Numbered from the stretch's first letter, positions 38,363 to 64,000 are shown. The stretch is 64,000 nt of DNA from an uncultured Pseudomonadota bacterium (GCA_963836235.1 CAWIIP010000002.1:50025-114024), one strand, 5' to 3'. Made by a program: numbers and translations. The notes: a model not told the origin generated them from the sequence alone.

Positions 38363-38437
<75 letters not shown>

Positions 38438-45823: not shown

Positions 45824-45955
45824 TTATCCAACCCTTTCCTCTTCAAATCCATCGTCCACTTCAATCCACAATTTGAACTTTATCGGTTATAAGCAGGATT
45901 GTCAATCACGGGGAAGATGGCTCCTTTTTTCACAAGAGGAACAAATTATGGCCGT

Positions 45956-48637
45956 CTAGTGTCGAATCATCACTTTCAAATTCTGCCGAGCTATCATGAA
46001 ACCATTAGCATCCCATAATTCAACAACCGCGACATAAACTCCACTTGCCACCGTTCCGTTTGGCAAAAAGGCCTGACTTGTTCCCGGGAGCCCCATAAAA
46101 ACGGCTACCTTTTCGCCCGCCAAATCATAAAGGCGCACTTTCAAGGTTAGAGGCTGGGTAGTAGAAGCTCTAAAGGTTAAAGGTGGACCCCCACTTTGCC
46201 AGGGGTTGGGGTAGGCCACAACACCATTACCGGACCCGCTACTGTTGACCACCGTCAAATCCTTTGTGATTACCTCTTCTCCACCGGTTCCATTCTCTGA
46301 AAAAATCTCCAGATAATAGACGCCATTGGTAGCCAAGGTTCCACCGCTACAACTACCGTCCCAGGCCAACGTCACTCCGTTGCTCATCCCGATGGTCACG
46401 GGGTTTGAGGTTGTTAAACTGGTTTGCAGGACCAAAGAGGATAACTGGACCGCCGTGACAGGTCCCGCCGCTCCATCCACTTTATAAAGAATCCGCACCA
46501 CTTCCCCCGCCGCATTACAAATCACCACCGATACCGCCCCCAGTGGCCGGCTAACCGTAACCTCCTGGACAACGCTTTGGTCCGATCCCAGACTATTCAC
46601 ACTGTCCACTTTCAGATAATAGATTCCGTTAGATACCGGATAGCCGGAAATATTGGTTCCATTCCAGGCCGAAAGCAGGTTCCCGTTCCAAAGTATGGAA
46701 ACCGCGTCGTTAGGTCCCGTCAAGCTCGTGATGGCATTTCCCGAACCCAGAGTGATGGAGGTTACTGGCTGAGGAGCCTTTTCCACCAGCAGCTTTTCTA
46801 CTAGCTCCCCTGCGGAGTTATAAACCGCAACAGTCACCGTATAAGGCTCAGGCAACGGGGTGGGGGTGGATGTTCCCGTAGGGGTGAAAGTGTCCGTTAT
46901 TGTGGGCGTAAAGGTAATGGTGTAGGTATTAGTTAACGTTGGTGTTGAAGTAAGCGTTCCGGTAGGAGTGGTGGTAAAGCTGGCAGTAGGTGTCGGCGTA
47001 AAGGTGTATGTGTTTGTCGGGGTGGAAGTTTCGGTCAGCGTTGGGGTGTCCGTCACCGTAAAGGTCAAAGTCGGAGTAAACGTAGGCGTTACGGTAGGGG
47101 TAAAAGTCACTGTAAAAGTATCCGTTATGGTCGGAGTTGGAGTCGACGTACCGGTCATGGTGGAAGTCGCGGTGGAGGTTGCGGTGGAACTGGGGGTAAA
47201 AGAATCCGTGGGTGTCGCTGAATTTGTCGATGTCCCCGTTGGGATATAGGTCGCCGTTAAAGTCGGAGTAGGACTCTCGGTTGGACTCGCCGTGGGAGTA
47301 AAACTATCCGTAACCGTGGGCGTCCAGGTTGTGGTCGGACTCGGGGTCAAGGTCGCGGTGGAAGTGGACGTAAAACCGGGCGTAAAAGAAGGGGTTGAAG
47401 TAGCGGTATAAGTGGGAGTCCCCGTAAGTGTCGACGTGAAAAAAGGAGTAGAAGTGGCGCTGTTGGTGGGAGTGAAGGAGAACGTCAGGGTGGGGCTATT
47501 CGTCGCGGTAAAAGAAGATGTCGGCGTTGGAGTAATGGTGGATGTCGGAGTCTGGGTCGCGGTATTCGTCGGGGTAGGTGTATTGCAAATCGAGTTGCAG
47601 GAAGCCGCCAAAAGGTTCACCCAATAAAAATCCTTGTCAGCGCTGTTGACGGGGCTTCCCAAGGCCCAGGTGATCTTTCCAGAGGGGTCCGAAAGGGGCA
47701 CGTTGGCGTAGCTGTCGAGAAAGGTGTCGTAGCTCACTGAAGAGTCCTGGAAGATGGTTCCACCCCCCAGGGCCATGTTGGGCGGCTGGGCCGGTCCCGG
47801 GTTGTCCGTACCGAAAAAATCGTCCGAGAAGCTGACCGGTACGTTGGGCGCACTCACACCTCCCCACCGTGAAAACTGGTTGGCCCCACAGGCCTGGCTG
47901 TGCTGACAACTCCAATCCAAGGTCGAATACCAGGGGGTGACCCCGTAATCCAGCTTAGAGTTGCCGCCCACTGTGGATCCGCCCCAAACGAAAAGCCCGT
48001 CTCCTAGGACCACCGCCCCGCAGGCGGTCGGGGCTGGAACCGTGTAGACGATCACCAGCCCGGCCAGCACCCCGACCGATAGGGCGCTCGTGCCATAGGT
48101 GGAGACGCCAGGCGACACCAGACTAGTCACGTCATAGCGCACATCGCAAAAAAAGGCGGAATCTCCGGTTGTTATTAGGTCGGTTCCCAGTCGTGGGTCG
48201 TTCCAGAGGTTCTCGAAATTGCCCTGGCCCACTTCCAATCCCGAGGGTGTTAGACCGCCCCCGAAAGACACCGGGGAGTTGCTGCAGGCATAGCCGTTCC
48301 ACCATTCCACCACCTCCAGGTAAGCCGCCTGGATGGTGGCACTGGACGGAGGAGGGGTGGCCAGAGTGATTGTGGTCACCCCGGCGGTATTGACCCCCGC
48401 CGCATAAAGCACCGATACGCCCGAAGCTGAATAAAGGTAAAACTGGTTGATGGCCATCGTGTTAAGAGAAACACTGGAAGAGGTACAATTGTCCAGGTTA
48501 CCCGTTTGGGTATAGGGCGCTCCGGAAGCGCCATATTGAGCCCTAGCCTGGGTTGATCCAAGGAGAAAAACCCCTGGAAAAAGCACTAGGAAGGATAAAA
48601 AAAACGGCTTAAATTGTAGCATCAAGGGGATATCCAA
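45956..48637 (-). CDS. Secreted 893-aa protein: Cys-containing N-domain, 245-aa Thr/Pro linker, three FlgD-Ig-like domains, the last resembling a T9SS-type C-terminal sorting domain
   Basis: Signal peptide. Linker at residues 352-596. Repeated v.V.vYNsAGE.V..L....G.....WdG.......sGvYY motif. C-terminus VAYPNPW....LYDLAGEKV...SGVYVAVVE....KVMIRH. Start is either TTG 48637 or ATG 48622. Confidence 0.6.
46850..47584 (-). repeat. Low-complexity (T/P/S/F)n linker-coding DNA, 735 nt
   Basis: Encodes [21 protein letters not shown]...[12 protein letters not shown]. Similar tracts occur at ~44332-44632, 56710-56901, 61032-61289 and 63039-63245. Confidence 0.9.
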
Positions 48638-48816
48638 AAGTCCGGCATGGGCCTTCCTTCATATTCCCCATCTCTAACGGCTAATTTCTTTACCCACTGA
48701 AGTTTTATTCCGCAAACAACTTACCCGATTCAAAGCTTAAAAAAGGCTAAAACAAAGACTTTTTTTAGTTCTACCTTTCGCACCCCAGCCAAGGACCCCG
48801 GGGTCAAAACAGCCTC

Positions 48817-50595
48817 CTACTTCAAAACTACCGGCAGTTGAAGCCCCGCTTTTACCAATTGAGCCGGAACCGTCATGGACTTGGAACCGTTGGTTACCGT
48901 CACCTCATAATCCCCTAGGAAACCCCGCACCTGGTAGACCCCCTTCGCATCTGTTGTTCCATCTGCGTTGGTCCACCAATCGCGTTGAACGAGTTGTTCA
49001 TAGGCCGCTCCCGAAGGCTTCTCGGTCCAATCCTGATTAAAGATCGGAGCCTTGTTGTGCCAATGGGCCCCATCCCAGAAACCCCACATCAAGAAGGCGT
49101 TGGTGGAGGGATGGCTGAAAACGGCGGTCATGAAATCCTTCAAAAACTGAGCATCAAGTTCCTGGTCCTTAATGTCCGTGTCGTATTCAGTAATTTCCAC
49201 GGGCAACCCGTGGGCCCCCAGCTTATCTAAAGTTTGGAGCAATGCCGGGATAGACCAGGGAGATGAACCAACATGACCCTGCAATCCAATACCGCCTAAG
49301 GGCGCACCCTTTTGGATGAGGTATTGGATGGTATCGTCGTACGCGTCAAGGTGTCCCGTGGTATCGGGACTAGGATAATCATTAACGAAGAGGAGCGGTT
49401 TAGGGTCCGCCTGCTGCGCCGTCTTGTACCAGGTAATCATGGCCTGCTTTCCCAGGATATCGGTCAGTTGGTGCTCTGGGACCGGTTCGTTTACCACATC
49501 CCACTCCACCAATTGTCCCTTCATAGTCCCGCCCACATCCTTGATCCGACTTTCGATTTTGGCTTCTAACGCCTTGGGGTCTCCTTCCAGTTGCTTGACC
49601 TCGGGTGGGAGATACCGCCATGTTCCCCAAACCATATTATGGCCACGCACGTCAAAACCCCTCTCGGACAGCCACTTCATCGCTCCCTGCACATATTCTC
49701 GGCGCCAATAGCCAGTATTGGAGGCTCCGTCCTCCCAAGGGCCCCATTTCAGGTCGTTCTCGAAGACCACGCGATTGAAAAGCCTTGCGACTTCCTTTTG
49801 GTAACGATCATTGTCGCCACCCTCGGTCGCCAAATTCTTCGCAACCACGGCCGTACCAAACCCGAAGGCATGGCGTTTCATTCGAACCGTTACTTTCGCG
49901 CCCAACAAGGGATTTCCATCAGAGTCTTTCACTAGGACGGTCAAATCGCCCTTGCGCATCTTCTCGATGCGATCCTGAGCTTCCTTGCGCCAGGGCGCGT
50001 CTGTATCTTCGCCGTCATAAGTCAGCTTAGTCTGAGGCAAGTCCGTGACTTTCACGTTAGTTCCATAGGTTGTCAGTTTGAAATCGGCAATCTCAAAGGC
50101 CTGAGGGTGATAGCCCATGCGGAAATAAATATGGGATTTCCCCGCGTCCAAATCCTCCACAATCGTGAACGGGATTGAAAATTTACGCCAATGGGGTCCC
50201 GCAGAGAGGTTGTAACTGACGGCTTTCGTCCAGGGATCACCCAAACGCTCAAATCCGAACTCACTGCTGGCCTCGCCGCTTTCCACGTTGGTCTCGGCGG
50301 CCCTCATCCAAAATTCGGCTAGGACCACATCGCCAGCCTTCACCGCTTGCGAAACGGGGGCTTCCACTTGCACATCCCAGGGATTGGCAGTGCTTTCAAA
50401 AGTAGTAAGCCTGAGGGCTTCCTTGAAGGCCTGTCCCACCACGGGAACCTTTTCCATTTTCCCCTTGCTCCCGTCAAATTGAATAAGATCGATGGCGGGG
50501 GGAGGAATCAAGTCATGGCCACCTGAAGGCACCGCCTGGGCGAATAAAGAAGCAGGAAATAACAAGGCGAAACAAGTCACGAGGGTTTTAAACAT
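48817..50595 (-). CDS. GH10 endo-1,4-beta-xylanase with N-terminal CBM-like module
   Basis: GHNMVWG, WDVVNEP (acid/base Glu), NDYP, GIGLQGH and VEITEYD (nucleophile Glu) motifs. Signal peptide MFKTLVTCFALLFPASLFAQA from ATG 50595. Confidence 0.8.
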   Translation of the reverse strand: MFKTLVTCFALLFPASLFAQAVPSGGHDLIPPPAIDLIQFDGSKGKMEKVPVVGQAFKEALRLTTFESTANPWDVQVEAPVSQAVKAGDVVLAEFWMRAAETNVESGEASSEFGFERLGDPWTKAVSYNLSAGPHWRKFSIPFTIVEDLDAGKSHIYFRMGYHPQAFEIADFKLTTYGTNVKVTDLPQTKLTYDGEDTDAPWRKEAQDRIEKMRKGDLTVLVKDSDGNPLLGAKVTVRMKRHAFGFGTAVVAKNLATEGGDNDRYQKEVARLFNRVVFENDLKWGPWEDGASNTGYWRREYVQGAMKWLSERGFDVRGHNMVWGTWRYLPPEVKQLEGDPKALEAKIESRIKDVGGTMKGQLVEWDVVNEPVPEHQLTDILGKQAMITWYKTAQQADPKPLLFVNDYPSPDTTGHLDAYDDTIQYLIQKGAPLGGIGLQGHVGSSPWSIPALLQTLDKLGAHGLPVEITEYDTDIKDQELDAQFLKDFMTAVFSHPSTNAFLMWGFWDGAHWHNKAPIFNQDWTEKPSGAAYEQLVQRDWWTNADGTTDAKGVYQVRGFLGDYEVTVTNGSKSMTVPAQLVKAGLQLPVVLK

Positions 50596-50874
50596 AAAAG
50601 TGGGGTTCCTTTCAAATTGATGCTTACAGTTTAAACGGTGATCAACCATCATGAAAGGCAGGTTAGCATCTTAAATATCAATCCGTTTCTAAAAAGCGGC
50701 TCTCCCGAGACAAAACTCCTCAGAAAACATATCCCGAGCTTTTAATTTCCTACCTCGTCTTTTTAAATAATGCAACCGGATTCGTCATCAAAATAATTCC
50801 AGGCAAAGATATAAAAATCTAACGGTACAGCCCGTGGTAGGATAAAGCTACGTCAAGCGATGAAGGAGGTTCTC

Positions 50875-50916
50875 ATGGCTACAAAGAAGAAAGCCGCCAA
50901 GAAAAAAAAGAAGTAA
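50875..50916 (+). CDS. 13-codon micro-ORF MATKKKAAKKKKK (candidate microprotein or leader peptide)
   Basis: AAGGAGG lies 6 nt upstream of the ATG. Two plus-oriented terminator hairpins follow immediately. The ORF stands alone between two minus-strand genes. Confidence 0.4.
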   Translation: MATKKKAAKKKKK

Positions 50917-50921
50917 CCCAC

Positions 50922-50942
50922 AAGCGCGCAAGCGCTTTTTTT
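50922..50942 (+). terminator. Intrinsic terminator
   Basis: AAGCGC-GCAA-GCGCTT hairpin followed by TTTTT. Confidence 0.65.
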
Positions 50943-50957
50943 GTGGTCGTTGAACCA

Positions 50958-50988
50958 AAGCCCGTGCGACTGCCCGGGCTTTTCTTTT
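50958..50988 (+). terminator. Second hairpin plus T-tract; may also serve the convergent giant gene
   Basis: AGCCCG-(10 nt)-CGGGCT followed by TTTCTTTTG. Confidence 0.5.
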
Positions 50989-51090
50989 GAGCCTCTTGTC
51001 TTAGACCTATCCCCAAAATGAATTGAAATTTAAACTCGTCTTAGCCTTCTAAAAAATTATTTTCAAAAAACCGATGGAAAATGTGATCTC

Positions 51091-54000
51091 TTAAGGAACT
51101 TCCAAGCCGAGGGTTCCCAGCGGTTCCGTGTCGTAGATATGAAGCTGAGTCGAATCGTAGAGCTGGGCTTGGAACACCTGGCCCGATACCGCTTGACCCA
51201 CGCTCAAGCCGAATTGGGAAGCCGAAAGGGTGTAGTTGAAGTAGTTATATGCTCCTGCCGCCAATGTAACCGGGCCCAGGAACACGGAAGTCCCGTTCGT
51301 CGTATCCACCACTTTCAAATAACTGGTCACGGCAGTGGTGCCTGGCACATGCAGGTAGGCTTCAAAGTTGAAAGTCTCGCAGTTCCCGTCTTCCCCATTG
51401 GTTAGGCAACTTAAAGAATAATTGTAATAGAAGTATTCTACCGGCGATTCCATCACGAACGGGGTGCCGCTGGGCACGGAGGTATCCAAAATTTGGTTCT
51501 GAGCCTGGTTGTAGAGCGTCACCTTCAAGGGAGCAGTAATCGCCGTGGTGACCCCAAAATCCCCTCCCGAGAGAGTAACGGAATAGCTGGTCCCGCTCCC
51601 GTTGTAAGTCCAAGGGCCAACCCACCGGCCCGTGTTATTCACTGTATCTGTTACGGCGGCATAGCTGGTTTCCGGAATCCCCGCGGGCCCGTTGGCATTG
51701 ATCGTTAGGAGGAAGTTCTGGCAGGCCCCGTTGCCGCTGTCTGACACCAGGCAGGATACCCCGCTGGAAGCGATATAAGACGAGGGAAATTCCAGGTTCA
51801 GGTTTCCCAAGGGCTTTGTATCCACAACCGCGTCGGTACCCGCGTCAACCAACTGTGCCAGGAACACTTGGCCCGCCGCCTTTTGGCCCACTGCCGTCAC
51901 ACCGAACTGCTCCGGCGAAAGATTCCATGTATTGGCTACGTAATAGCCCCCGTTGTCAGTAACCGGGCCCAGGAACACCGTGGTTCCGTTGGAAAGGTTT
52001 GTCAGTTCAATCAAGCTCGTCACCGGACCCGATCCACTCGGCGCAAACAGCTCAGTGTCAAAGTTGAAATTGACGCAACTCTCATCCTCCGCCGTTGTGG
52101 CGCAGCTTAAATAGTTATATTCGTTGTAATATTCATAAAAGGATTCTTCGGGAGCCTCCAGCATGAAGGGCGATCCACCGGGCGTGGCTGTATCCAATAT
52201 TTTGGTTTCAGATTCGTCGTACAGCGTCACCTTAAGGGAAGTGGTGGTGGCCGTGGTAACTCCGAAATCCCCTCCCGTCAAAGTGACTGAATAGCTGGTC
52301 CCACTACCCGTGTAAGTCCATGGACCGACCCAGACATACTCGTTATTCGTCGTATCCGTGACGGCGGCGTAACTGGTTTCCGGAACCCCTGTAGACCCAT
52401 CGGCATTGATGGTCAAGACGAAGCTCTGGCAGGCCCCGTTGTTAATGTCCGAAACCAGGCAGGAAACCGAGCTGGAGGCGATGGAAATTCCCGGATATTC
52501 CAGGTTAAGACTCCCCAAGGCCCTTGCGTCCAATACCGCGCTGCTGGCGGCATCTATCAACTGCGCCTCGAATACCTGGCTTACCGCCTGCTGGCCCACC
52601 ATCGTCACTCCAAACTGTTGCGGCGAAAAATTCCAGGTATTGGCGACGTAATAGCCCCCGTTGTCAGTAACCGGGCCCAGGAACACCGTAGTCCCGTTGG
52701 AAAGGTTCGTCAGTTCAATCAGGCTCGTCACCGGGCCCGATCCGCTCGGCGCAAACAGCTCAGTATAAAAGTTGAAATTAGAACAGTTCCCCTCTTCCGT
52801 GGTGGTGGCGCAACTCAAATAGTTATAAGAGTCATAACTGTAATAATAGAAATATTCCTCAGGCGACTCCAGCTGGAAGGGTGTCCCAAGTACCGAGGTA
52901 TCCAGAATTTTAGTCTGCGTGGGGTCGTACAGGTCCACCTTCAGTGAAGTAGTGGTGGCCGTTGTGACCCCGAAATCCCCTCCCGTTAGGGTGACTGAAT
53001 AGCTGGTCCCACTCCCCGTGTAGTTCCAGGGCCCAACCCACACATATTGGTTGTTCGTCGCATCCGTCACCTTGGCGTAGCTGGTACCCAGATTCCCGGT
53101 CGGCGCGTCGGCGTCAATGGACAAGACGAAACTCTGGCAGGCCCCGTTGTTAATGTCCGAAACCAAGCAGGAAACCGAGCTGGAGGCGATATAAGACGAG
53201 GGATATTCAAAATTCATGCTTCCCAAAGCCTTCGCGTCCAAAACCGCCTGGCTTCCGTTGTCGATCAACTGCGCTTCGAACATCTGGCTCACCGCTTGCT
53301 GCCCTACTGTCGTCACCCCAAACTGTTCCGCCGAGAAGTTCCAAGTATTCGACGCATACCCCTCAGTAATTGTAATCGGGCCAAGGAACATCGTGGTGCC
53401 ATTGGAAAGATCTATCAATTGGACCATGCTCGTTACCGGGCTGGCACCGGGCGCGTACAACTCGGTATCAAAGTTGAAATTCGAGCAGTTTCCGTCTTCC
53501 GCCGTGGTCGCACAACTTAAGTTGTTATAGTCGCTGTAATATTCGTAAAAATATTCTTCCGGAGCCTCTAGAGAAACAGGCAACCCAGTTGGAACGGTGT
53601 TCCCTAAGGCCACGTTTTGTGCCGCATTGTAAAGAGTCACCGCCAAGGAAGCCGCGGTCGCCGTGGAAATCCCAAAATCCCCTGCCGTCAGGGTGACCGA
53701 ATAACTGATCCCCGTTCCTGTGTAAGTCCAAGGGCCCACCCACAGGCTATTGTTATTCGTGGTATTGGTGACATAGGCGTAACTTTCCGCCGGACCACCG
53801 CTGGAGTTGGCATCGATCGTCAGGACAAAGCTCTGACAGGCTCCGTTGCCGCTGTCGGACAAAAGGCAAGCCGCTGACGCGCCCGCCAGGCTGGCGGCGG
53901 TGCTGCTGTTTTCGATATTAAGAACCCCCGTCGTCTTCGTGTCCCAAACCTGGGTCTGGGTCGAATCGTAGAGCTGGGCTTGGAACACCTGGCTGATGGC

Positions 54001-57000
54001 CGATTGGCCCGAAGGCAAGCCGAAATTGGCCCCGGTGAGGGGAACCGAGTAATACAAATTCTGGTTTCCGATGTTGGTCACGGGCCCCAACATCGTGGAG
54101 GCCCCGGTCGTCAAGTCGACAAGCTTCACATAGCTGGTCACGGGAGTAGATCCTGGAACATCCAGGTAGGCGTTATAGTTGAAGGTCACACAGTTCCCAT
54201 CCTCCGCCACTGTGACACAGGAGAAATAGCTCTCGTAAAGGTATTCCTGGGATGTTTCCAGAGTCATAGGTGACCCACTAGGCACCGCGGTATCCTGCAG
54301 ATTGCCGGATGGGCTATAAAGCGAAACCTTCAGGGGAGGGGCGGTTGGGGTGGTTACCCCGAAATTCCCTCCAGACAAAGTGATCGAATAGCTGTTGGCA
54401 TCGGTACCCGAATAGGTCCAGGGACCCACCGATACATATTGGTTATTCGCCAAGTCCGTAAGAGTGGCATAGCTGGTTTCCGGGATTCCTGTCGGCCCGT
54501 TGGCGTCGATGGTCAAGATGAAGCTCTGGCAGGCCCCGTTATTGACGTCCGTCTGCAAGCAGGATAGCGAACTGGAGGCAATATAAGCCGAGGGATATTC
54601 CAGGTTTAAGCTCCCCAGATACTGCGAGTCCAAAACCGCCAGGCTGCCGTTGTCGATCAACTGTACTTCGAACATCTGGCTTACGGCCTTTTGTCCCACC
54701 AAGGACACGCCGAACTGACCCGGCGAAAGATTCCAGGTATTGGCCAGGTACCCACTTCCAGGAATCACAATCGGGCCCAAGAACATTGAGACACCGTTCG
54801 AAAGGTTTGTCATTTCAATCAGGCTCGTTACCGGGCCGGTTCCCGGGACGTACAATTCGGAATAGAAGTTGAAATTCGCGCAATTCCCGTCTTCCGCCGT
54901 GGTGGCACAGCTTAAGTAGTTATACTCGCCATAATACTCGTAGAAATATTCCTCCGGCGCCTCGATCGTCATGGGTGATCCAATGGGAATCGAAGTATCC
55001 AATATTTGGGTCTTGGATTCATTGTATAACTCCACTTGCAACGAAGCGGTCGCCGCCGTAGTGACCCCAAAGTCTCCGCCCGTTAAAGTGACCGTATAAC
55101 TTGTGCCGCTCCCCGAGTAGGTCCAAGGCCCCACCCACAGGTACTGGCCGTTCGTCGTATCGGTTACGGCGGCATAGCTGGTTTCCGAAACCCCGGCGGG
55201 CCCATTGGCGTCTATCGTCAAAACAAAGCTCTGGCAGGCTCCATTATTGACGTCCGATACCAGGCAGGACACTGAGCTGGAGGCGATAGCCGTCGAGGGA
55301 TATTCCAGGTTCAGGCTTCCCAATGGCTTCCTATCCAAAACAGCGTCCGTCCCGGCATCGATCAACTGCGCCTCGAACAGCTGGCTAGCCGCCTGCTGGC
55401 CTACTATCGTCACCCCAAACTCCAGCGGCGAAAGATTCCAGGTATTTTGCGCGTAATCGTAGTATCCCCCGGAGACCGTAACGGGACCCAGGAAAACTGA
55501 AACACCGTTGGAAAGGTTCGTCAATTCGATCAAACTCGTCACCGCACCCGAAATGGGCGCGTAAAGGTAAGTTTGGAAGCTGAAATTCGAGCAGTATCCG
55601 TCCTCCGACGTAGTCGCGCAGCTTAAGTAGTTATACGAATTGTAGTCATATTCGTAGAAATATTCTTCGGGCGATTCCAGCGTCAAGGGTGATCCGGCGG
55701 GAATAGATGTATCCAGTATTTGGCTCTCGGACTCGTTGTAAAGTTCCACCTTCAACGAGGCAGCGGTTGCCGTGGTAACTCCAAAATCCCCTCCCGCCAG
55801 TGTGACCGAATAACTGGTCCCGCTCCCCGTATAGGTCCAGGGACCTACCCACACATATTGGCCGTTCGTGGTATCTGTTACGGCGGCGTAGCTGGTTTCC
55901 GGAATCCCTGTGGGTCCATTGGCGTCAATCGTCAAGACGAAATTCTCGCAAGCTCCATTGTTAATATCCGACACCAGGCAGGACACGGAGCTGGAGGCGA
56001 TGGCCGTCGAGGGATATTCCAGGTTCAGGCTTCCCAAAGCCTTCGCGTCCAAAATCACATCCGTTGCGGCGTCGATCAATTGCGCCGTGAAGACCTGGCT
56101 CAACGCCTGCTGGCCCACGGTTGTCACCCCGAATTGTTGCGGCGAGAGGTTCCAGATATTTCCGGCATAATATCCCCCGGTATCCGTAACGGGGCCCAGG
56201 AACACCGAAACACCGTTGGAAAGGTCCGTGAGCTTGACCAAAGTCGTAACCGGGGTTGAGCCTGGTGCGAATAGTTCAGTATTAAAATTAAAATTCTCGC
56301 AGTACCCGTCCTCCGCCGTGGTCGCGCAGCTCAAGTAGTTATAAGAACTGTAGTAGTTGTAGAAATATTCTTCGGGCTCCTCCAACGTCAAAGGCGATCC
56401 GGAGGGAATGGCATACCCCAAAACTTGACTTTCGGTCGTGTTATAGAGGGTCACTGCCAAGGAAGTGGCAATCGCCGTGGTGACTCCGAAATCCCCGCCC
56501 GTCAGGGTGACTGAATAACTAGTACCGCTCCCCGTGTAAGTCCAAGGTCCTACCCACACATATTGGCCGTTCGTTAAATCCGCGACGTAAGCGTAACTTT
56601 CTGCCGGGTTTCCATTTGAATTGGCATCGATGGTGAGTACAAAGCTTTGGCAAGCCCCGTTATTGGTATCCGAAAGCAGGCAAGACAGTGAACTTGAAAC
56701 GGTGTAGCCAGGAACGAAAGTAGGAGAAGGCGTAAAGGTGTTAGTGGGAGGAATAGTGGTATTGGTGGTAGCGGTGTTACTCGGCGTGGGGGTAATCGTC
56801 GGTGTATCCGTGATGGTCGGAGAATTGGTGAAAGTAGGTGAATTTGTAGGTGTAAAGGTGTTCGTGGGAACATTGGTCGGTGTTGGTGGGGGGGCGGGGC
56901 AGGATCCGTTGATGTCAGCGGTGGTGGGATCATAGGCGTAATAGGGCAAGGTAGTATTTACCCGGAAAAAGAACTTGGGACCGGTAGGACCCGGCGGGTA

Positions 57001-57864
57001 AAGACCGAAAGGTTGATTGGGGTTGACTACTTGTATCCACGCATGGCCGTTTGCCCCTGCCGGTCCCAGGCTAACACAATAAACATCCCCCGCTTGGAGG
57101 TAGGAAGGTGAAACTCCCGCAGCCTGCTTGGCGACAGTGGAAGAAGCCACAAAGGCCGAGGTGACTGGAGTGCTGTCAAAATTAACGATCGGTCCGTTTC
57201 CTAGATAGGCGATCCCGTTGCTGGCTAAGGCAGCAAGCAAGTAAGTACCTGTGCCTACTGTTCCAATGGCCAAATCCGGAGAACCCGTTGGCGTAGCCGA
57301 CAGGATGTCGGGCTGGAAAGTGAAATAGGCGGTGGTTACTCCAGCCGCGCTTACTCCATAAGAGGAGGTATCCACCGCGTAGCAATTGCGGACAACCGAT
57401 CCCATGGTTACCCAAATATCGCTGACGCCACCCGCGTTGATGTCCGACTGCGCCGCGCCCAGGGCAAGGGGCTGGTGATTGGACGCATTGTTAAGCTGGA
57501 ACGACAACAGCCGCGAAGCCCCTTGGGGAACCACAATAGAAAAATCCAATTCCCCCGACTGTGTCGCCGTGCTGAAAGGACCCGCCACGCCCGTAACAGG
57601 CCCCATGTTAGGCCCCGTTACCTGGTACATGACTTCGTTGCTGGCAACCCCCAGGAGGCTATCCTTGATCTCCTTGGATATGGGCATAGAAAAGGAAAGG
57701 GAAAGACCCCTCACCGCCACCAAGGGAGCTGTCGGAGACATTTTCCCCTGGCACCCCCAATGAGAAAAAAGAATCAATAAGCCCATGGCCAATACCAAAG
57801 TCGTCCCGAGGAACCCCCCCGAAGACTTTCTAAACCAGGGTTTCCACCCTTTCACGAGCGTCAT
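51091..57864 (-). CDS. Giant (2,257 aa) secreted or lipoprotein-like surface protein with 8 x ~232-aa tandem units (16 Cys-clamped domains)
   Basis: I use the ATG at 57864, which forms an ATGA overlap with the upstream stop. Signal LVLAMGLLILFSHWGC. A ~280-aa N-domain, a Thr/Pro linker, then repeats to the very C-terminus. Confidence 0.8.
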   Translation of the reverse strand: MTLVKGWKPWFRKSSGGFLGTTLVLAMGLLILFSHWGCQGKMSPTAPLVAVRGLSLSFSMPISKEIKDSLLGVASNEVMYQVTGPNMGPVTGVAGPFSTATQSGELDFSIVVPQGASRLLSFQLNNASNHQPLALGAAQSDINAGGVSDIWVTMGSVVRNCYAVDTSSYGVSAAGVTTAYFTFQPDILSATPTGSPDLAIGTVGTGTYLLAALASNGIAYLGNGPIVNFDSTPVTSAFVASSTVAKQAAGVSPSYLQAGDVYCVSLGPAGANGHAWIQVVNPNQPFGLYPPGPTGPKFFFRVNTTLPYYAYDPTTADINGSCPAPPPTPTNVPTNTFTPTNSPTFTNSPTITDTPTITPTPSNTATTNTTIPPTNTFTPSPTFVPGYTVSSSLSCLLSDTNNGACQSFVLTIDANSNGNPAESYAYVADLTNGQYVWVGPWTYTGSGTSYSVTLTGGDFGVTTAIATSLAVTLYNTTESQVLGYAIPSGSPLTLEEPEEYFYNYYSSYNYLSCATTAEDGYCENFNFNTELFAPGSTPVTTLVKLTDLSNGVSVFLGPVTDTGGYYAGNIWNLSPQQFGVTTVGQQALSQVFTAQLIDAATDVILDAKALGSLNLEYPSTAIASSSVSCLVSDINNGACENFVLTIDANGPTGIPETSYAAVTDTTNGQYVWVGPWTYTGSGTSYSVTLAGGDFGVTTATAASLKVELYNESESQILDTSIPAGSPLTLESPEEYFYEYDYNSYNYLSCATTSEDGYCSNFSFQTYLYAPISGAVTSLIELTNLSNGVSVFLGPVTVSGGYYDYAQNTWNLSPLEFGVTIVGQQAASQLFEAQLIDAGTDAVLDRKPLGSLNLEYPSTAIASSSVSCLVSDVNNGACQSFVLTIDANGPAGVSETSYAAVTDTTNGQYLWVGPWTYSGSGTSYTVTLTGGDFGVTTAATASLQVELYNESKTQILDTSIPIGSPMTIEAPEEYFYEYYGEYNYLSCATTAEDGNCANFNFYSELYVPGTGPVTSLIEMTNLSNGVSMFLGPIVIPGSGYLANTWNLSPGQFGVSLVGQKAVSQMFEVQLIDNGSLAVLDSQYLGSLNLEYPSAYIASSSLSCLQTDVNNGACQSFILTIDANGPTGIPETSYATLTDLANNQYVSVGPWTYSGTDANSYSITLSGGNFGVTTPTAPPLKVSLYSPSGNLQDTAVPSGSPMTLETSQEYLYESYFSCVTVAEDGNCVTFNYNAYLDVPGSTPVTSYVKLVDLTTGASTMLGPVTNIGNQNLYYSVPLTGANFGLPSGQSAISQVFQAQLYDSTQTQVWDTKTTGVLNIENSSTAASLAGASAACLLSDSGNGACQSFVLTIDANSSGGPAESYAYVTNTTNNNSLWVGPWTYTGTGISYSVTLTAGDFGISTATAASLAVTLYNAAQNVALGNTVPTGLPVSLEAPEEYFYEYYSDYNNLSCATTAEDGNCSNFNFDTELYAPGASPVTSMVQLIDLSNGTTMFLGPITITEGYASNTWNFSAEQFGVTTVGQQAVSQMFEAQLIDNGSQAVLDAKALGSMNFEYPSSYIASSSVSCLVSDINNGACQSFVLSIDADAPTGNLGTSYAKVTDATNNQYVWVGPWNYTGSGTSYSVTLTGGDFGVTTATTTSLKVDLYDPTQTKILDTSVLGTPFQLESPEEYFYYYSYDSYNYLSCATTTEEGNCSNFNFYTELFAPSGSGPVTSLIELTNLSNGTTVFLGPVTDNGGYYVANTWNFSPQQFGVTMVGQQAVSQVFEAQLIDAASSAVLDARALGSLNLEYPGISIASSSVSCLVSDINNGACQSFVLTINADGSTGVPETSYAAVTDTTNNEYVWVGPWTYTGSGTSYSVTLTGGDFGVTTATTTSLKVTLYDESETKILDTATPGGSPFMLEAPEESFYEYYNEYNYLSCATTAEDESCVNFNFDTELFAPSGSGPVTSLIELTNLSNGTTVFLGPVTDNGGYYVANTWNLSPEQFGVTAVGQKAAGQVFLAQLVDAGTDAVVDTKPLGNLNLEFPSSYIASSGVSCLVSDSGNGACQNFLLTINANGPAGIPETSYAAVTDTVNNTGRWVGPWTYNGSGTSYSVTLSGGDFGVTTAITAPLKVTLYNQAQNQILDTSVPSGTPFVMESPVEYFYYNYSLSCLTNGEDGNCETFNFEAYLHVPGTTAVTSYLKVVDTTNGTSVFLGPVTLAAGAYNYFNYTLSASQFGLSVGQAVSGQVFQAQLYDSTQLHIYDTEPLGTLGLEVP
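51094..56697 (-). repeat. Coding tandem repeat array, 8 units of 675-714 nt
   Basis: Unit boundaries set by hand on the translated protein: 56697-55996, 55995-55282, 55281-54577, 54576-53881, 53880-53185, 53184-52477, 52476-51769, 51768-51094. Confidence 0.9.
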
Positions 57865-59063
57865 AGGCTCACCTCGTAATGGGTTCCGAAGGTCCAATGA
57901 CCGTAATCAACATTCACGCGGTTTAACTGTTGGTCAGTATCCGCGTTTTGCCAAACAATAAAATCGTAACCCACCGAAAACTTAAGGTGTGAAGAAGCGT
58001 CGAGTTTGAGTTGATAAGAGGGTTCCAGGCCCAAAAGAAAACCACCGCCGTCATAAAAAGAGTTTCCAATAGGATAGTCATTGGCCAATATATATTTTAC
58101 CTGGGCTAAAACTGTGAAATCGCCAAAGGCGTAACTGGGGGTTAAATAAAACCTCGTCCCCAGGGAACCATTGGATTGTGAAACCATCTGAGTCGGTAGA
58201 AAATACTGTCCACCTACCTCGAAAGAAAAAGCCTTGGGATTCGACCAGCCATAGGAAGCGTTCAAGTTGGGCCCCATCGTCAGCAAGTTAGAGCCGTCTA
58301 ACTTGGTGGAAAGGAAATAAAAGGCCGATAGCCGGATGACATCGCTCTGGCCGCCCCCATGATCCGCCAATCGGTTCAAAGAGAGAAATACCGAATCCCC
58401 CAGTTTCAACTGTTCCGCCGGGCTCCCCACTTCTCCATAATAGGGATTGAAAGCACCTGTATACATATAGCCCGCCGCCAAGCCGAACTGTTCTCCTCCG
58501 GCCTGAAGGGAAAGTCCGTAAAGCAGACTCGTCCCGAAACCCCTTCCCCGATAGTCGCTGTCGATAAACTCAGTGGGAACGATGGAATTGGTTTGCTGGG
58601 TCTCCCAGGCGGAATTGCCCGTGGGAATATTGATTCCAACACTCAAAATGGAAGGAAGGTCGAAGCTTTTGAAATCGGTCTGCAAACCCAACACCGTGTC
58701 CGAAAAGTGCCTTAAGGAAATAGTCTCGGTGGTTCCATCCTGCGAATCCGTATAGTTTCCAGCGGCATATTCGGTCTGGGCGAAAACCCGACCGCCATTC
58801 CAGGGAATGACCGATAAAGTCAATGGCGTTAAAACTTCCCAGCCGTTGTCCGGAAGGGGGCTATTGGATTGCCAACCCACCCCTTGGACTCCGAGGTCCA
58901 AGGTCCCCCAAGGGGCCGGAGCTTTCGCCGGCGGATTTTCAGTTTGGGCCAGAACTGATGTAAGACACCCGAAAAAAACTATGGCTAGTAGAGCAAAAGA
59001 AACTCCGTGAAGATTTCGGAGAAAGAACTGAACTGTTGGTTTCAAATATTGGGCCGCGATCAT
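57861..59063 (-). CDS. Putative outer-membrane beta-barrel protein (400 aa)
   Basis: Signal peptide ..FALLAIVFFGCLTSVLAQ. G/Y/S/N-rich alternating pattern throughout. ATGA overlaps at both ends. Confidence 0.5.
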   Translation of the reverse strand: MIAAQYLKPTVQFFLRNLHGVSFALLAIVFFGCLTSVLAQTENPPAKAPAPWGTLDLGVQGVGWQSNSPLPDNGWEVLTPLTLSVIPWNGGRVFAQTEYAAGNYTDSQDGTTETISLRHFSDTVLGLQTDFKSFDLPSILSVGINIPTGNSAWETQQTNSIVPTEFIDSDYRGRGFGTSLLYGLSLQAGGEQFGLAAGYMYTGAFNPYYGEVGSPAEQLKLGDSVFLSLNRLADHGGGQSDVIRLSAFYFLSTKLDGSNLLTMGPNLNASYGWSNPKAFSFEVGGQYFLPTQMVSQSNGSLGTRFYLTPSYAFGDFTVLAQVKYILANDYPIGNSFYDGGGFLLGLEPSYQLKLDASSHLKFSVGYDFIVWQNADTDQQLNRVNVDYGHWTFGTHYEVSL

Positions 59064-60001
59064 GGAACGGCCTCCCCTGGTGGAACAATAATGTGGATCT
59101 TGACACTTTGTTGGGATTGGTTAAGGTTGTTATCTCCGTTGATTAAAATTCCACCCAAAAATTGGTTGTTCAAATCGCCAAGGCAGGAGTTAGGTTGTAA
59201 TCCTGAAGAACCGTTACCTTCTGTTCCAGTTTGAGTGCCGTTACCGGGAGTGTTAGAAGAACCGGTGTTTGAATTATCTTGTCCGTTGTCGGTTCCACTG
59301 TTTCCGGTAGAACCGCCATTGGCCCCGGAATTGTTGCCATTGTTTCCTCCAGACCCATTACCCGAGGAGCCCCCGGAACTTCCTTTGCCACCGTTGCCTC
59401 CACCCTTACCAGAGGAACCCGCGTTCAATAATTTTCCATCCCATTTTCCGTTGAAGAAACGCCCTTCTTGCCCCTTCCCAAACAACTGGGTTGCCCCTCC
59501 GCTGGCCGCACCGACCAAGCCCTCAAGAACACTTAAATCCAACTTTTTAGTGTCCGGATCGAAGTTCATGGAAAACTGCGTTCCCCGGACCCCGCAAACC
59601 ACTCCTCCCGCCTCCACCTCGAAACTGGATTTGGCGGTTATGAGTTTCCGTACCTGCGCAAACAGTTTGCCGATCGCTAGTTGGAATAAAAAATTCTTGG
59701 TCTCGGGAGAAGGTTGGGTCAAGGAGGTGATGGTTAAACGGCTGTTGGCGGATAAGTCCAGCGATGAACCATCGGGAAGGCTAACAGAAGCTTGAGAATC
59801 GGATCCCACCTGAATGGTATCTCCCGGATGGATCACATGACCAAGGACAGCCTTACGAGAATGGCCTTTAGGCGTAAAAACCTTAACCTGCCCCTTGAAC
59901 GATGAAAAAGTGGCGTCCTTTTTCCCTTCCCCCAGCGCACTGGAGGCGAGCCCATAGACCGATAAAAGAAAAAGTAAAAATAATGTTCCAGCTTTTTTCA
60001 T
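59060..60001 (-). CDS. Secreted FecR-domain protein with Gly/Ser/Asn-rich tail (313 aa)
   Basis: Signal MKKAGTLFLLFLLSVYGLASSALG. FecR-like F.G.V.V........A..G..I..GD.I..G..S.A.V.L.DGS.L.L..NS.L.I. Residues ~195-285 are almost only G/S/N/T. Confidence 0.6.
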   Translation of the reverse strand: MKKAGTLFLLFLLSVYGLASSALGEGKKDATFSSFKGQVKVFTPKGHSRKAVLGHVIHPGDTIQVGSDSQASVSLPDGSSLDLSANSRLTITSLTQPSPETKNFLFQLAIGKLFAQVRKLITAKSSFEVEAGGVVCGVRGTQFSMNFDPDTKKLDLSVLEGLVGAASGGATQLFGKGQEGRFFNGKWDGKLLNAGSSGKGGGNGGKGSSGGSSGNGSGGNNGNNSGANGGSTGNSGTDNGQDNSNTGSSNTPGNGTQTGTEGNGSSGLQPNSCLGDLNNQFLGGILINGDNNLNQSQQSVKIHIIVPPGEAVP

Positions 60002-60236
60002 AAGAATTCTTGAAACCCTTTACCGAAAGATTCGACCGGGTATTTTCAGCACCTGACCACGAGCACGAATTTAAAAAATCGAAGAACCCATGGATTTTTC
60101 AAAACTCCGAAAAATACCCGCCCTTGTTCAGATTTTCAATTATTTATTCTTCAAAGCGATGCGTTGTATTTTCACTGGTCATATCATGTGGAGAAAAGAT
60201 GTGGGAGACCTTATCCAACAATCGAAACCAAAAAGT

Positions 60237-60470
60237 CTAGTTTGGGTTAGTCCCCCGGGGATGAGTACTGCCGGTAATGGGATTCGTTTTGGTCCCACGC
60301 TTCGTGGTTGACTTATGGCCAGTCGGGGCCGAAGTGCTAACCAAGGTTCCCTTGATCGGATTTTCTTTACTACCCAAGGGCGCGCCATTGGTGCTGGTCT
60401 GGGCCAGCAATAGGACCGGAACAGAGATCGTGGCCATGGCAGCTGCCACTACTAAATACTTTCGAACCAT
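60237..60470 (-). CDS. Small secreted T/G/P/K-rich peptide (77 aa precursor)
   Basis: Internal ATG at 60470 with AAGGAGG 6 nt upstream. Signal MVRKYLVVAAAMATISVPVLLLAQ. The track's 150-aa version adds an unlikely N-terminal extension. Confidence 0.5.
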   Translation of the reverse strand: MVRKYLVVAAAMATISVPVLLLAQTSTNGAPLGSKENPIKGTLVSTSAPTGHKSTTKRGTKTNPITGSTHPRGTNPN

Positions 60471-60737
60471 AAAAAACCTCCTTGAACGGCTTGTCGGCGA
60501 CAATATGTTAGCCCCAATAGAAGATTTAAGAAAATAAAAAAACACTCCCCCACACGAATGAAATTTCGACGAAATTGAGGAGCCGGAGAGCCTGAAAATA
60601 CGCCAAGAATAATGGTTTTTATGGTTTACAAGAATTTGACAAAGAAAAATAAATTGGTGCCCAGGTCGGACTTGGACCAACATGTCCATAGTGAATCTTA
60701 TTGAAAAAGAATATTTTATTTAAAAAAACGGCGTAAC

Positions 60738-63700
60738 TTACTGGATCACCAAGACCTTCAGAACTTTGGAGGTTTTTACCGGGCCGGAGACCTGGACCCT
60801 GAGGTAGTAAAGGCCGTTGGCCACCGGTCTTTTCCAGGCGTCTTCAAGATCCCACACAAGAATAGAGCTATTGCCCGAAACGGGATTGGAGTTATCCAGT
60901 ACCTTGCGGAAGGCCGTCGTAAAAACGCTCCATTCCACGGTGGAACCTAGGGGCACCTGCAATTGTAAAGACACCGGGCCTGAGCCCATCACGGGATTGG
61001 GATAGGGTGGTCCAATCACTACCCCTGTCACGCCTGGAGTGGGACTTATTGTCGGTGTCGAAGTGATTAAAGGTGTATTGGTCAACGTAGGTGTCCCAGT
61101 TAAGGTTGGCGTTAAGGTTGGGCTATAGGTCAGGGTAATGGTGGGTGTTTCGGAAGGAGTAAATGTTAAAGTTACCGTCGGGCTGTTGGTTAAGGTCGCT
61201 GTTGGGGTGATGGTCGCGGTGGCCGTTGTCGTAAAAGTGGGAGTTATCGTCGGACTTGCCGTGGGTGTCCGGGTGGGAGTAGGAGTCCGGACGATGGTCC
61301 AGCAGGATGCCGCGGGGCAGGTTCCAAAACTGTAAACCTGGCCGTTACTCCCGTCGGCCACAAACCATCCGCCGTTGCCCGCCGCCACGCCCTCGGTGTC
61401 GTAAAAATTCGCCCCGGTTCCTGGCCCGGAGACCACGCCCAAAACAGTTCCATTCGGATCAAAAACTCCCACGCTGCTGAAACCGTCAGTCACAAAAACA
61501 AGGCAGTCGCCGGTGGTCGCCAGGAAATTGGCGGTTAAAAGTGAAGTTTCAAGGGTCGCGTCCCACTGTCTTTTCCACTTCCCCGTCCCGTCGAAGACCT
61601 GGACTATTCCAGTTTCTCCGTCGGCTACGTAGACCTCTCCTTGGCCATTCAAGGCGACCCCCGCGGGCTCTAGGAAGCTTCCATCCCCATTTACGCCAGG
61701 GAAACCCCAGGCGGTCAGCGTGGAAACCGCCGGGATTCCGGTAGTGGTCACGAGGAACTCCTGCATTCGCTGATTCCCTGAATCCGCAACAAAAACCGTG
61801 GTGCCACTGGAGCCTGTAGTAACCGCGATGCCATAGGGCGCCTCGAATTGCCCGCCCCCCGAGCCAGAGGTCCCCCAGTTTAGGACCAGGGACCCCGAGG
61901 CGTTAAAGACGTCCACCATATTCTGTTGTTCATCCGTCACGTAGGCATAGCCGTTGGCGTCCATGGCCACTCCCACCGGCAGGGCCTCCGGCCCCAGAGA
62001 TAATGCGGGGCCCGGAACGTCGACGGAGTTGAAAGTATCCACCGCGTTCACCGAGCTATTCACCACATAGAGGTTCCCTCCCGTGTCCAAGGCGGCACCC
62101 CATGGCTGGGAAACCGCCAGGGGCGTCCCGACCAGGGGACAGGAAAGGATCGGTGCTGGGGGATAAGTAGGCGTGACGGTGGGCGTATACGTGAAGGTGG
62201 CCGTACTCTCGGGAACTGAACAATGCAATTTGATAATGGTATCCATGGACGTGTGTCCGGCGTAAACGTTTCCGGCCGGATCTACCGCGATGGATTGGCC
62301 GTAAACCGGCGCGATGGCGCAGCTCCATCGGAAATTGAAATTTGGATCAAATGTATAGTAATCCTCGACGGCCCCCACAAAGACATTCCCGAAGGCGTCC
62401 GCAACGATACGGCCCATATAATCGTTGCCGTTGGATGTTTGCCAGAAAGCATGGTATGCGTAGGTATTGGACCCCGCCGGTGCCTGAAGATACTGGAGCA
62501 CGCGTTGGGCAATGTCCCCATCCGACAGGTAAAGGGTCGAGGGTGCGCCGGCGTTCCCCGGGACGTACAGGATGCCGGGAGCGCCTTGGTGGACCGGGCT
62601 GGCATCGGTGGAAAATGACAACTGAGCCAAAGTGGAAGTACTGGCAGACTGGGTGATTAGGTACAGATTTCCGGAGTCGCAACCCGCGTAAATTTCCGGG
62701 TAGGACGACCCAGGGGCCACTGACAGGCTCCGCACCCCGTTTTCCGGGATGCTGAAGGTTTCCACGATATTCCCCGAGGGAAGTTGGGCCTTGAACACCT
62801 TGCTATTGTAGTCGGCTACGTACAAATAGCCGTCCCCCCCCATCGCCATGGCCGTGATGCTGTCAAAGGAAGCTGGCATGGAATTGTTCAGGATCGCCCC
62901 GTTCGCTGGGTTGAGCCCCAAAATCGTGGCGCCTCCGCCCGCGTAAAGAGTGGCGGGCCCCGAGGGATCATAAGCCAGGCCGTCTACGTCGGGAAGCGGA
63001 CCTGAAGTGACAGTCCAGGCCGTCAGGCAGCAGTTGGGAATGGATGTCGGGGTGAAGGTGGGAACGGCGGAGTTCCAAGTGAAGGTAGGTGTTGGTGTGG
63101 CCGTGGATGAGGGTGAAGCTGTCGCGGTAAAGGATACCGTGGGAGTGGCCGTGAGGATTGGAGTATTCGAGGGGGTTGAGGTGAGGGTGAGCGTTGGGGT
63201 CCAGGAGCCCGTTGAAGTGGCGGTGGCAGTGGGCACCGGGAAAGGCTGGAGGTAAATAAGGACTCGGCTTCGGTTATGGTTGGCCACGTAGAGGTTACCT
63301 TGGTCGTCAAAGGTTTCGGAATAATCCTGCGGCCCATAGTCCTTTAGGTAGGTGACTGGGTTAGCGCCCCCGCCCAGTGGATTCTGGAAGACCATGGTAA
63401 AAACAGAACCCCCGCTTTGGGCGTCCGAACCTGCGGTCATTACGGTGTCACCCGGGGAAAGAGCCGGTTCCCAGGGCCCCAATGCGTTGTAAACCATCGT
63501 GGCCGAAACCGCGTACAAGGGAGTAGCACCGCTGTTTTGGATGCTGGCTGCGCTGTACATCAGGATCCGGCCGTCACCGTTGAACTCCAGTGAATGGTCC
63601 CCCACGAACAGGTTTCCGTACTGGTCCAATACCGCTGATCCGGGGTTATTCATGTTGTTGTTGGCGGGGGTTCCTCCCGGATAGTCCACCGTGGTGGAGG

Positions 63701-63998: not shown

Positions 63999-64000
63999 AT

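Follow-up and report, generated by a model that had tools for sequence, protein, structure and literature searches.

What kind of device could be encoded by three overlapping genes whose products are a secreted FecR-domain protein, an outer-membrane beta-barrel from a family without annotation, and a giant predicted lipoprotein? The genes, numbered here 1 to 3, follow one another on the minus strand of a 64,000-nucleotide stretch of DNA from an uncultured Pseudomonadota bacterium (GCA_963836235.1, CAWIIP010000002.1:50025-114024). This whole stretch is called the window, and positions are counted from its first nucleotide. A reading made from the sequence alone had proposed that the triad is a surface-display or export module. 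The core of this idea is retained, and none of the three results named beforehand as grounds for giving it up was obtained, but it needs widening to display plus signalling. The triad seems to be a device, not described before, for display and sensing at the cell surface, and a signalling role, beyond export or display, is strongly implicated for the family.

The three genes are one conserved, translationally coupled unit. The stop codon of gene 1 and the start codon of gene 2 overlap in an ATGA at 59060-59063 (CC-ATGA-TC), and a second ATGA joins genes 2 and 3 at 57861-57864 (CT-ATGA-CG); both junctions, already pointed out by the sequence-only reading, were confirmed by open reading frame (ORF) calls and in the sequence itself. 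A Shine-Dalgarno-like GGGGAGG or GAGGTGA precedes both downstream ATG codons, GGGGAGG lying 8 nucleotides before that of gene 2. The coupling follows from these overlaps together with the ribosome-binding sites, and overlaps of four nucleotides are also present in most relatives. Gene 3 is counted here from its ATG, its longest ORF (2,268 residues) starting at an upstream TTG. The coordinates of all three genes and of their parts are collected in Table 1.

Relatives of the barrel were searched among 5.8 billion proteins, which gave 96 homologues, 41-79% identical and all unnamed. The barrel family is small: when 1.84 billion cluster representatives were searched exhaustively with its profile, no more than 170 proteins reached E<=1e-3, and 41 of them E<=1e-30. 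The motifs NIPTG..WE ... DSDYRGRGFG served as search patterns for this family. With one genome per species, 41 barrel loci were collected, nearly all in metagenome-assembled genomes (MAGs) labelled candidate division FCPU426; one comes from a Candidatus Firestonebacteria, while a few carry the label 'uncultured proteobacterium' or 'bacterium'. Two or three barrel loci come from each of several genomes. As a separate observation, the loci labelled 'uncultured proteobacterium' (L009, L010, L015, L028, L029) or 'Proteobacteria bacterium' (L032) are of the FCPU426 type, their proteins being 46-79% identical to those of the window or of FCPU426 MAGs, and the taxonomic labels of these six MAGs are probably wrong.

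ORFs were called in all these loci and searched with hidden Markov models (HMMs) built from the window's own proteins, and 47 distinct barrels were thereby compared. A FecR-domain gene is found directly upstream of 44 of them, mostly with an overlap of four nucleotides. The third protein is recognised in relatives by an N-terminal module of about 290 residues, named here the N-module; a protein carrying it is encoded directly downstream of 30 of the 47 barrels and, for 40 of them, at some place in the locus on the barrel's strand. In addition, a same-strand CHASE2 adenylate/guanylate cyclase is present at 22 of the 47 barrel loci. This co-occurrence of three genes goes far beyond chance, since it is repeated in dozens of independent loci, and the test of co-occurrence in relatives, which the sequence-only reading had set for itself, thus came out in its favour. 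Precomputed gene calls and Pfam matches at ten loci agree with the picture of FecR protein, barrel, N-module protein and cyclase, and none of these ten related loci has an extracytoplasmic function (ECF) sigma factor or a TonB-dependent receptor beside the unit.

The gene orders observed are F-B-L, C-[L]-F-B-[L] and F-B-L-C-F-B, where F stands for the FecR gene, B for the barrel, L for the lipoprotein and C for the cyclase. Loci of the window type, whose barrels are 49-100% identical to that of the window, combine FecR, barrel and a large lipoprotein with no cyclase. In a second type (37-52% identity) the order is CHASE2 cyclase, [large lipoprotein], FecR, barrel, [small lipoprotein], and composite arrays (L007, L036, L017/L026) run through FecR, barrel, lipoprotein, cyclase, FecR and barrel. 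The FecR-barrel-lipoprotein pattern can even be extended to distant relatives outside FCPU426 (E of 1e-13 to 1e-18 to the profile), two of which include a CHASE2 cyclase (Table 1). In 27 complete triads, drawn from genomes that may hold several paralogues, pairwise distances between barrels correlate with those between adjacent N-modules (r=0.87), as do those of FecR proteins and barrels (r=0.65; permutation p<=0.001), and the cassettes therefore diverge as units.

Three observations on individual loci may be added. At about 9741-14871 of L045, a CHASE2 cyclase, a 2,360-residue lipoprotein, a FecR gene and a fragmented barrel are followed by another FecR gene, a barrel and two small N-module-like lipoproteins, a tandem duplication which suggests cassette expansion by local duplication. 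In several cyclase-linked loci (L036, L040, L041), a membrane protein of about 200 residues, starting with M.WTDFLSLFLPLFVA and perhaps MarC-like, is found 3' of the barrel instead of a lipoprotein. The remote barrel relative at 6001-7710 of L051, whose match covers only positions 9-311 of the 376 of the profile, carries thrombospondin type 3 repeats and a DUF1554/endostatin-like domain as a C-terminal fusion.

The product of gene 2 had been assigned to the outer membrane from its composition, and the structural prediction bears this out. AlphaFold2, run on an alignment of 60 sequences, predicts a beta-barrel with a mean predicted local distance difference test (pLDDT) score of 83.7 and a predicted template-modelling (pTM) score of 0.77, in which about 16 strands span residues 53-399 and the first strand begins only about 13 residues past the signal peptide. 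The most conserved motifs of the family, those used above as search patterns, are carried by a long loop with a short helix (Table 1), which is a candidate lumen or partner-binding element. Neither single-sequence nor profile searches of the PDB, nor scans of Pfam and NCBIfam, gave any match to this barrel. When the 60 aligned members and 20 remote relatives were scanned along with the query, Pfam and NCBIfam again named no barrel family above their thresholds; the hits to OMP_b-brl, in three of the remote relatives, and to the Autotransporter beta-domain, in two of the 60 members (E=0.003), fell short and were treated as noise. Foldseek returned only generic barrels (template-modelling (TM) scores of 0.37-0.48, 8-15% identity, root-mean-square deviation of about 8-18 A) from families as unrelated as MOMP, AlgE, OprD/Occ, FadL, OmpC, BcsC, chitoporin and CymA, so that the model points to an outer-membrane barrel and to nothing more specific. 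General porins and substrate channels (OmpF/C, OprD/Occ, AlgE, FadL, MOMP) were rejected as relatives for lack of a profile or close structural match, and the second of the refuting outcomes set beforehand did not occur. Some family members have an N-terminal FecR-like domain (P0025, P0115) or N-terminal TPR repeats (P0068, P0111, P0123), and these fusions put the domains concerned on the periplasmic side of the barrel.

Gene 1 encodes the protein described by the sequence-only reading, with its signal peptide, its FecR segment and its stretch rich in Gly, Ser, Asn and Thr. The signal peptide has no Cys, and the protein is therefore not a lipoprotein. The FecR domain, whose failure in profile searches was the third outcome that had been feared, passes the Pfam cut-off by a wide margin (Table 1) and is the only domain found by the Pfam scan; the protein has neither an anti-sigma domain nor a transmembrane helix. 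Below the thresholds of NCBIfam, it matches the Leptospira FecR-domain lipoproteins Lsa33 and LipL45, and its start, residues 28-94 of the protein (59720-59918, minus strand), resembles the retention module of LapA (31 bits, with the cut-off at 50; E=2e-7). Retention modules of the LapA type hold giant adhesins in their outer-membrane channel. The 44 FecR partners share a common plan in which signal peptide and FecR domain are followed by a low-complexity linker whose length varies and then by a conserved C-terminal motif with the consensus L.DLN.QF..G...NGDNN...I.V.VVPPGEAVP. In gene 1, the final G-E codons of this motif overlie the ribosome-binding site of the barrel gene, and its conservation is therefore partly at the nucleotide level.

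The sequence-only reading of gene 3, a protein of 2,257 residues with a signal ending in HWGC and 16 Cys-clamped domains, is fully supported: of its 36 Cys, one is C38 of HWGC, three belong to the N-module and 32 form 16 C-x8-10-C pairs. A Cys preceded at -1 by G, A or S stands directly before the N-module, after a hydrophobic stretch, in 44 of the 46 N-module proteins listed (WGC, AGC, LGC, GGC, IGC, VSC, WAC and other contexts), the remaining two being weak partial matches. This pattern argues that the third protein is a lipoprotein, its lipidation being predicted from the sequence. The N-module is common to the lipoproteins of all these loci. At some of them it makes up the whole mature protein, in versions of about 290-350 residues, and at others it is followed by Thr/Pro linkers and then by unrelated passengers (NHL propellers, leucine-rich repeats or immunoglobulin (Ig)-like A+B units). 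An AlphaFold2 model of residues 1-622, computed from an alignment of 22 homologues with seven other repeat units as rows, gives pLDDT values mostly of 80-95 over residues 70-320 of the N-module and about 75-90 for the two beta-sandwiches of passenger unit 1. The N-module has no relative in Pfam or the PDB, the sole PDB profile match falling in the Thr/Pro linker, and Foldseek found nothing specific for it.

The passenger of the window protein is built of units that each pair two Cys-clamped beta-sandwich domains, A and B, which makes 16 domains in all. The units are 46-78% identical to each other and form a 4+4 super-repeat in which unit 4 resembles unit 8. In Foldseek, the model of residues 1-622 resembles only generic tandem Ig/fibronectin type III (FnIII)-like domains, those of transglutaminase (C-terminal), of alpha-2-macroglobulin (MG), of RbmA and of the adhesin MpIBP. 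In other genomes, the giant proteins contain 5, 8 or at least 11-12 copies of the A+B unit. By these comparisons, the 16 Cys-clamped domains are a lineage-specific, length-variable passenger, and the N-module is the defining conserved element. Ig-like stalks, NHL propellers and leucine-rich repeats are all typical extracellular binding modules. The barrel-plus-passenger logic suggested at the outset remains the most natural way to place an Ig-like stalk of this size outside the cell.

A secreted FecR protein lacking an anti-sigma domain was presented by the sequence-only reading as an oddity. It is indeed true that the usual FecR partners, an ECF sigma factor and a TonB-dependent receptor, are absent from the window unit together with the anti-sigma N-domain, but the oddity itself disappears, as secreted FecR-domain proteins are already known to accompany CHASE2 receptors. 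In Burkholderia and Campylobacterota, genes for FecR-domain and TPR proteins occur in clusters with those for CHASE2 kinases and cyclases (PMC5192318, PMC9239204). The CHASE2 cyclases of Sinorhizobium meliloti cannot perceive an external protein signal without NsrA, an outer-membrane barrel protein (PMC7529298, PMC13001267). Searches of plasmids by tblastn with CHASE2 queries also detected a CHASE2 cyclase adjoining a FecR-domain gene on a Rhizobium plasmid; CyaK/NsrA on pSymB was not recovered by these searches. CHASE2 signalling is the closest described biology. It is this known neighbourhood, combined with the cyclase at 22 of the 47 related loci, that implicates the family in signalling. 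Those loci, in which cyclase, FecR and barrel lie on one strand, resemble the set formed in S. meliloti by NsrA with the CHASE2 adenylate cyclases CyaK, CyaD1 and CyaD2. The secreted FecR-domain protein is likewise shared with clusters of the NsrA type, and some barrels of the family bear TPR or FecR-like domains. NsrA differs, in a comparison made by description only, by its length of about 1,200 residues with the barrel in the C-terminal half, against a separate mature barrel of about 360 residues here; no conserved lipoprotein partner of NsrA has been described, and the window locus itself has no cyclase.

On these grounds a three-part cell-envelope complex, in which a surface lipoprotein is held by the barrel and linked by the FecR protein to inner-membrane CHASE2 signalling, is put forward tentatively, at slightly less than an even chance. 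The N-module of the lipoprotein would dock on or in the barrel, which would deliver the lipoprotein to the cell surface, hold it there, or both. The variable passenger would project outward as a binding or sensing antenna which, in the window, could take the form of a stalk tens of nanometres long; display outside the cell is favoured because the passengers are binding domains of extracellular type and because a stalk of 16 domains is hard to fit in the periplasm. The FecR-domain protein may be attached to the periplasmic side of the barrel by its conserved C-terminal motif, its long linker allowing the FecR domain to reach a partner in the inner membrane. For the cyclase-linked paralogues, this partner would be the periplasmic CHASE2 domain, and the signal would pass from the outside to lipoprotein and barrel, then to the FecR domain, to CHASE2 and finally to cAMP/cGMP (cyclic AMP or GMP), a route comparable to FecA-FecR and to NsrA-CyaK of Sinorhizobium. 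If the lipoprotein is docked and displayed, the FecR protein held at the barrel and its linker long enough, the family would accordingly perform cell-surface signalling. The window copy, which belongs to the cyclase-less subclass, might signal to a partner encoded elsewhere or serve as a display or anchoring device for a giant adhesin-like stalk.

Several points weigh against this proposal. No CHASE2 cyclase within about 10 kb accompanies 25 of the 47 barrels, and neither such a cyclase nor any other obvious output gene is present in the 64-kb window. FecR-CHASE2 pairs also exist without a barrel, so that the link to cyclases may concern the FecR protein only. The lipobox is non-canonical, with H-W at positions -3/-2 against the classical L-[AS]-[GA]-C, and the co-divergence of the cassettes is partly a matter of shared species phylogeny. 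The contacts within the complex, its topology, its surface exposure and its function are inferred, and the N-module could sit at the surface, in the lumen or on the periplasmic face of the barrel. It is somewhat unlikely, on balance, that the device is an unrecognised trans-envelope machine in which a dedicated barrel would export and hold surface lipoproteins by means of the N-module as a docking element, along a new, non-Slam route, and an outer-membrane-tethered FecR protein would link this surface antenna physically to inner-membrane CHASE2 receptors.

A first rival is export and anchoring alone. The device would then be a functional analogue of Slam (type 11) systems, the barrel translocating the lipoprotein, the FecR protein acting as a periplasmic chaperone or holder, and the cyclases regulating expression or hitch-hiking. 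A cargo-like lipoprotein beside the barrel, passengers that vary greatly behind a conserved N-terminal 'address' module, the N-terminal TPR domains of some barrels, as in Slam proteins, the co-divergence of barrel and N-module, and the difficulty of storing a 16-domain stalk in the periplasm all speak for it. It is nevertheless unlikely: the barrel, with its roughly 16 strands and generic structural matches, has no DUF560/Slam homology, the lipoproteins of about 300 residues that lack a passenger imply that the N-module is more than an address tag, and neither the FecR domain, a known signalling adaptor present at 44 of 47 loci, nor the CHASE2 cyclase at 22 of 47 is explained.

Nutrient uptake and envelope surveillance are both improbable, to a similar degree. 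For uptake of the SusC/SusD kind, in which the lipoprotein would bind a polymer or particle, the barrel would be a product channel and the FecR protein a leftover of trans-envelope regulation, one may invoke the order FecR-barrel-lipoprotein, which mirrors that of anti-sigma factor, SusC and SusD in the polysaccharide-utilisation loci of Bacteroidota, the GH10 (glycoside hydrolase family 10) gene just downstream of the unit in the window with a GH18 gene near L005, and the presence of the substrate-specific channels OprD/Occ, AlgE, chitoporin and CymA among the closest structural matches. These matches are weak, however (TM scores below 0.5, 8-15% identity), no conservation of neighbouring glycoside hydrolases is seen across the loci examined, and no TonB-dependent plug, STN domain, ECF sigma factor or SusD-like fold was found. 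A periplasm-facing lipoprotein that, like RcsF, monitors the stress or integrity of the outer membrane rather than external ligands would be consistent with the Rcs layout of lipoprotein, barrel and periplasmic relay to an inner-membrane sensor, and with the minimal lipoproteins of about 300 residues that have no obvious ligand-binding passenger. Against this, a single genome holds several divergent paralogues whose large passengers, of binding type, differ greatly from each other, a pattern that favours diverse external ligands over one housekeeping sensor.

By comparison with described systems, the unit belongs neither to FecIRA, nor to Slam, nor to two-partner secretion. With FecA-FecR-FecI the unit shares PF04773, an outer-membrane barrel, the order FecR then barrel and, as proposed here, a relay across the periplasm. 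It differs by the absence of an anti-sigma N-domain, a membrane helix, an ECF sigma factor, and the Plug, STN and TonB_dep_Rec domains, and by a FecR protein that is secreted and probably held on the outer-membrane side, that is, with the opposite polarity. Slam (type 11) systems, with their DUF560 barrel carrying TPR repeats and their cargos TbpB, fHbp and NilC, likewise place a barrel beside a presumed variable lipoprotein cargo, and TPR-barrel fusions occur in some members of the present family, the window barrel having no TPR. No match to DUF560 (PF04575) was obtained in the query or in any of 60 family members at E<=1, the Slam barrel has 14 strands against about 16 in the AlphaFold2 model, and a FecR partner is unknown for Slam. 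Moreover, recognition of Slam cargos depends on their C-terminal beta-barrel domain, whereas the conserved cargo element is N-terminal here. RcsF with OmpA/OmpC/OmpF and LptD-LptE also unite a lipoprotein with a barrel, in which it is housed or through which it is threaded, in the case of Rcs coupled to an inner-membrane signalling partner; they show no sequence or fold relationship to the present proteins and have no FecR component or giant passengers. The giant adhesins LapA and MpIBP have in common with gene 3 a tandem Ig-like stalk, as indicated by the Foldseek match to the MpIBP repeats, but the window protein has no type 1 secretion signal, RTX repeats or TolC-like partner, and its anchor would be a lipid-modified N-terminus with a dedicated barrel. 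Two further candidates were rejected: two-partner secretion (TpsB/Omp85), in the absence of any POTRA, ShlB or Bac_surface_Ag Pfam match, and an electron conduit of the MtrCAB type, the giant protein being devoid of any CXXCH motif.

Table 1. Coordinates of the features described in the window, followed by gene orders at distant relatives of the unit
Feature	Position	Strand	Basis or remark
Gene 1: secreted (periplasmic) FecR-domain protein, 313 aa (amino acids)	59060..60001	minus	ORF and Pfam
Type-I-like signal peptide of gene 1, about residues 1-24, MKKAGTLFLLFLLSVYGLASSALG	59930..60001	minus	Cleavage site inferred from sequence
FecR domain PF04773, residues 61-163	59513..59821	minus	Pfam E=1.2e-15, 58.1 bits against cut-off 24
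Gly/Ser/Asn/Thr low-complexity linker of gene 1, residues 195-275, 83% G/S/N/T	59177..59419	minus	Length varies among relatives
Conserved C-terminal motif of gene 1, DLNNQF..GIL.NGDNNL....Q.V.IHIIVPPGEAVP	59063..59176	minus	Comparison of 44 partner ends
Gene 2: outer-membrane beta-barrel, unannotated family, 400 aa	57861..59063	minus	ORF and AlphaFold2
Long loop and short helix of gene 2, residues 147-176	58536..58625	minus	AlphaFold2 and family conservation
Gene 3: giant predicted lipoprotein, 2,257 aa from ATG	51091..57864	minus	ORF
Signal peptide of gene 3, ending in lipobox-like HWG-C38	57751..57864	minus	Family comparison
Conserved N-module of gene 3, residues 39-325, two beta-rich domains	56890..57750	minus	Alignment, HMM matches, AlphaFold2
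Thr/Pro-rich linker of gene 3, residues 326-388, 79% T/P/S/N	56701..56889	minus	Predicted disordered, pLDDT 29-35
Passenger of gene 3, 8 tandem units of 226-238 aa each	51094..56700	minus	Sequence repeats
Possible intrinsic terminator hairpin (AAAGCCCGGGCAGUCGCACGGGCUUUGGUU), about 110 nucleotides past gene 3 stop	50957..50983	minus	-17 kcal/mol, z=-1.5, not significant; weak
Secreted Thr/Pro-linker neighbour, 893 aa	45956-48637	minus	FlgD_ig; Por_Secre_tail (type 9-like sorting domain) match sub-threshold
NHL-repeat neighbour, 1,086 aa, large, secreted, long Thr/Pro linkers	60738-63998	minus	ORF reaches window end
Locus L050 (Nitrospinota protein cluster)			Lipoprotein, FecR, barrel, lipoprotein
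Locus L051			Response regulator, CHASE2 cyclase, FecR, barrel
Locus L053			CHASE2 cyclase, FecR, barrel, lipoprotein
Locus L054			FecR, barrel, lipoprotein

The genes that flank the unit in the window are those of the GH10 enzyme (E=3.7e-46), of a Thr/Pro-linker protein and of an NHL-repeat protein, together with an uncharacterised ORF of 150 residues. A GH10 enzyme and Thr/Pro-linker flanks had been taken as a hint of attachment to polymers or particles. The flanks themselves are confirmed, but the GH10 neighbour is not conserved across loci, which leaves this hint without comparative support. The Thr/Pro linkers of gene 3 are shared with neighbours that have a secretion-type C-terminal domain, and the C-terminal end of the NHL protein resembles, by eye, that of the 893-residue neighbour. 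Promoter and terminator scans gave counts at chance level, and past gene 3 they revealed only one weak hairpin (Table 1). Between the giant gene and the GH10 gene, a 13-codon ORF, MATKKKAAKKKKK, is found on the plus strand at 50875-50916 with a perfect GGAGG site 5 nucleotides upstream, and is followed at 50922-50937 by a GC-rich palindrome with a T-run that looks like a terminator; it could be a gene for a tiny basic peptide or a leader peptide. Elsewhere in the window, a SAM (S-adenosylmethionine) riboswitch is located at 377-497 on the minus strand (RF00162, full-length match, 80.9 bits) and three tRNA genes, Val-GAC, Cys-GCA and Gly-GCC, at 35468-38437 on the same strand. The G+C content is about 0.41-0.46 at 20000-45000 and 0.50-0.59 at about 45000-64000, where the triad and the Thr/Pro-linker proteins lie; this rise may come from the codons of linkers rich in ACN/CCN and of Gly-rich proteins, or it may set apart a distinct genomic region.

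Targeted literature searches, made for the triad, for LipL45 with FecR and for FCPU426, yielded no description of such a module, and no described system with the triad was found in Pfam, NCBIfam or the PDB, as the sequence-only reading had supposed. The module, two of whose protein families lack annotation, can be regarded as a variation on cell-surface signalling and on the display of lipoproteins with the help of a barrel. Little is understood of what CHASE2 sensor domains bind and of what acts upstream of them, and only one outer-membrane partner, NsrA, has genetic support. If the trans-envelope machine outlined above exists, it would provide the first mechanistic picture of CHASE2 domains receiving signals from beyond the outer membrane. 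With its many paralogues and differing passengers, the set of cyclase, FecR protein, barrel and lipoprotein would be a tractable model of how signals reach CHASE2 receptors across the outer membrane. Routes that bring lipoproteins to the surface are known for few two-membrane lineages, and the barrel with its N-module lipoprotein is a candidate new route. The finding also gives a context to two families of 'hypothetical' proteins of FCPU426, a phylum of soil and peat without a cultured member.

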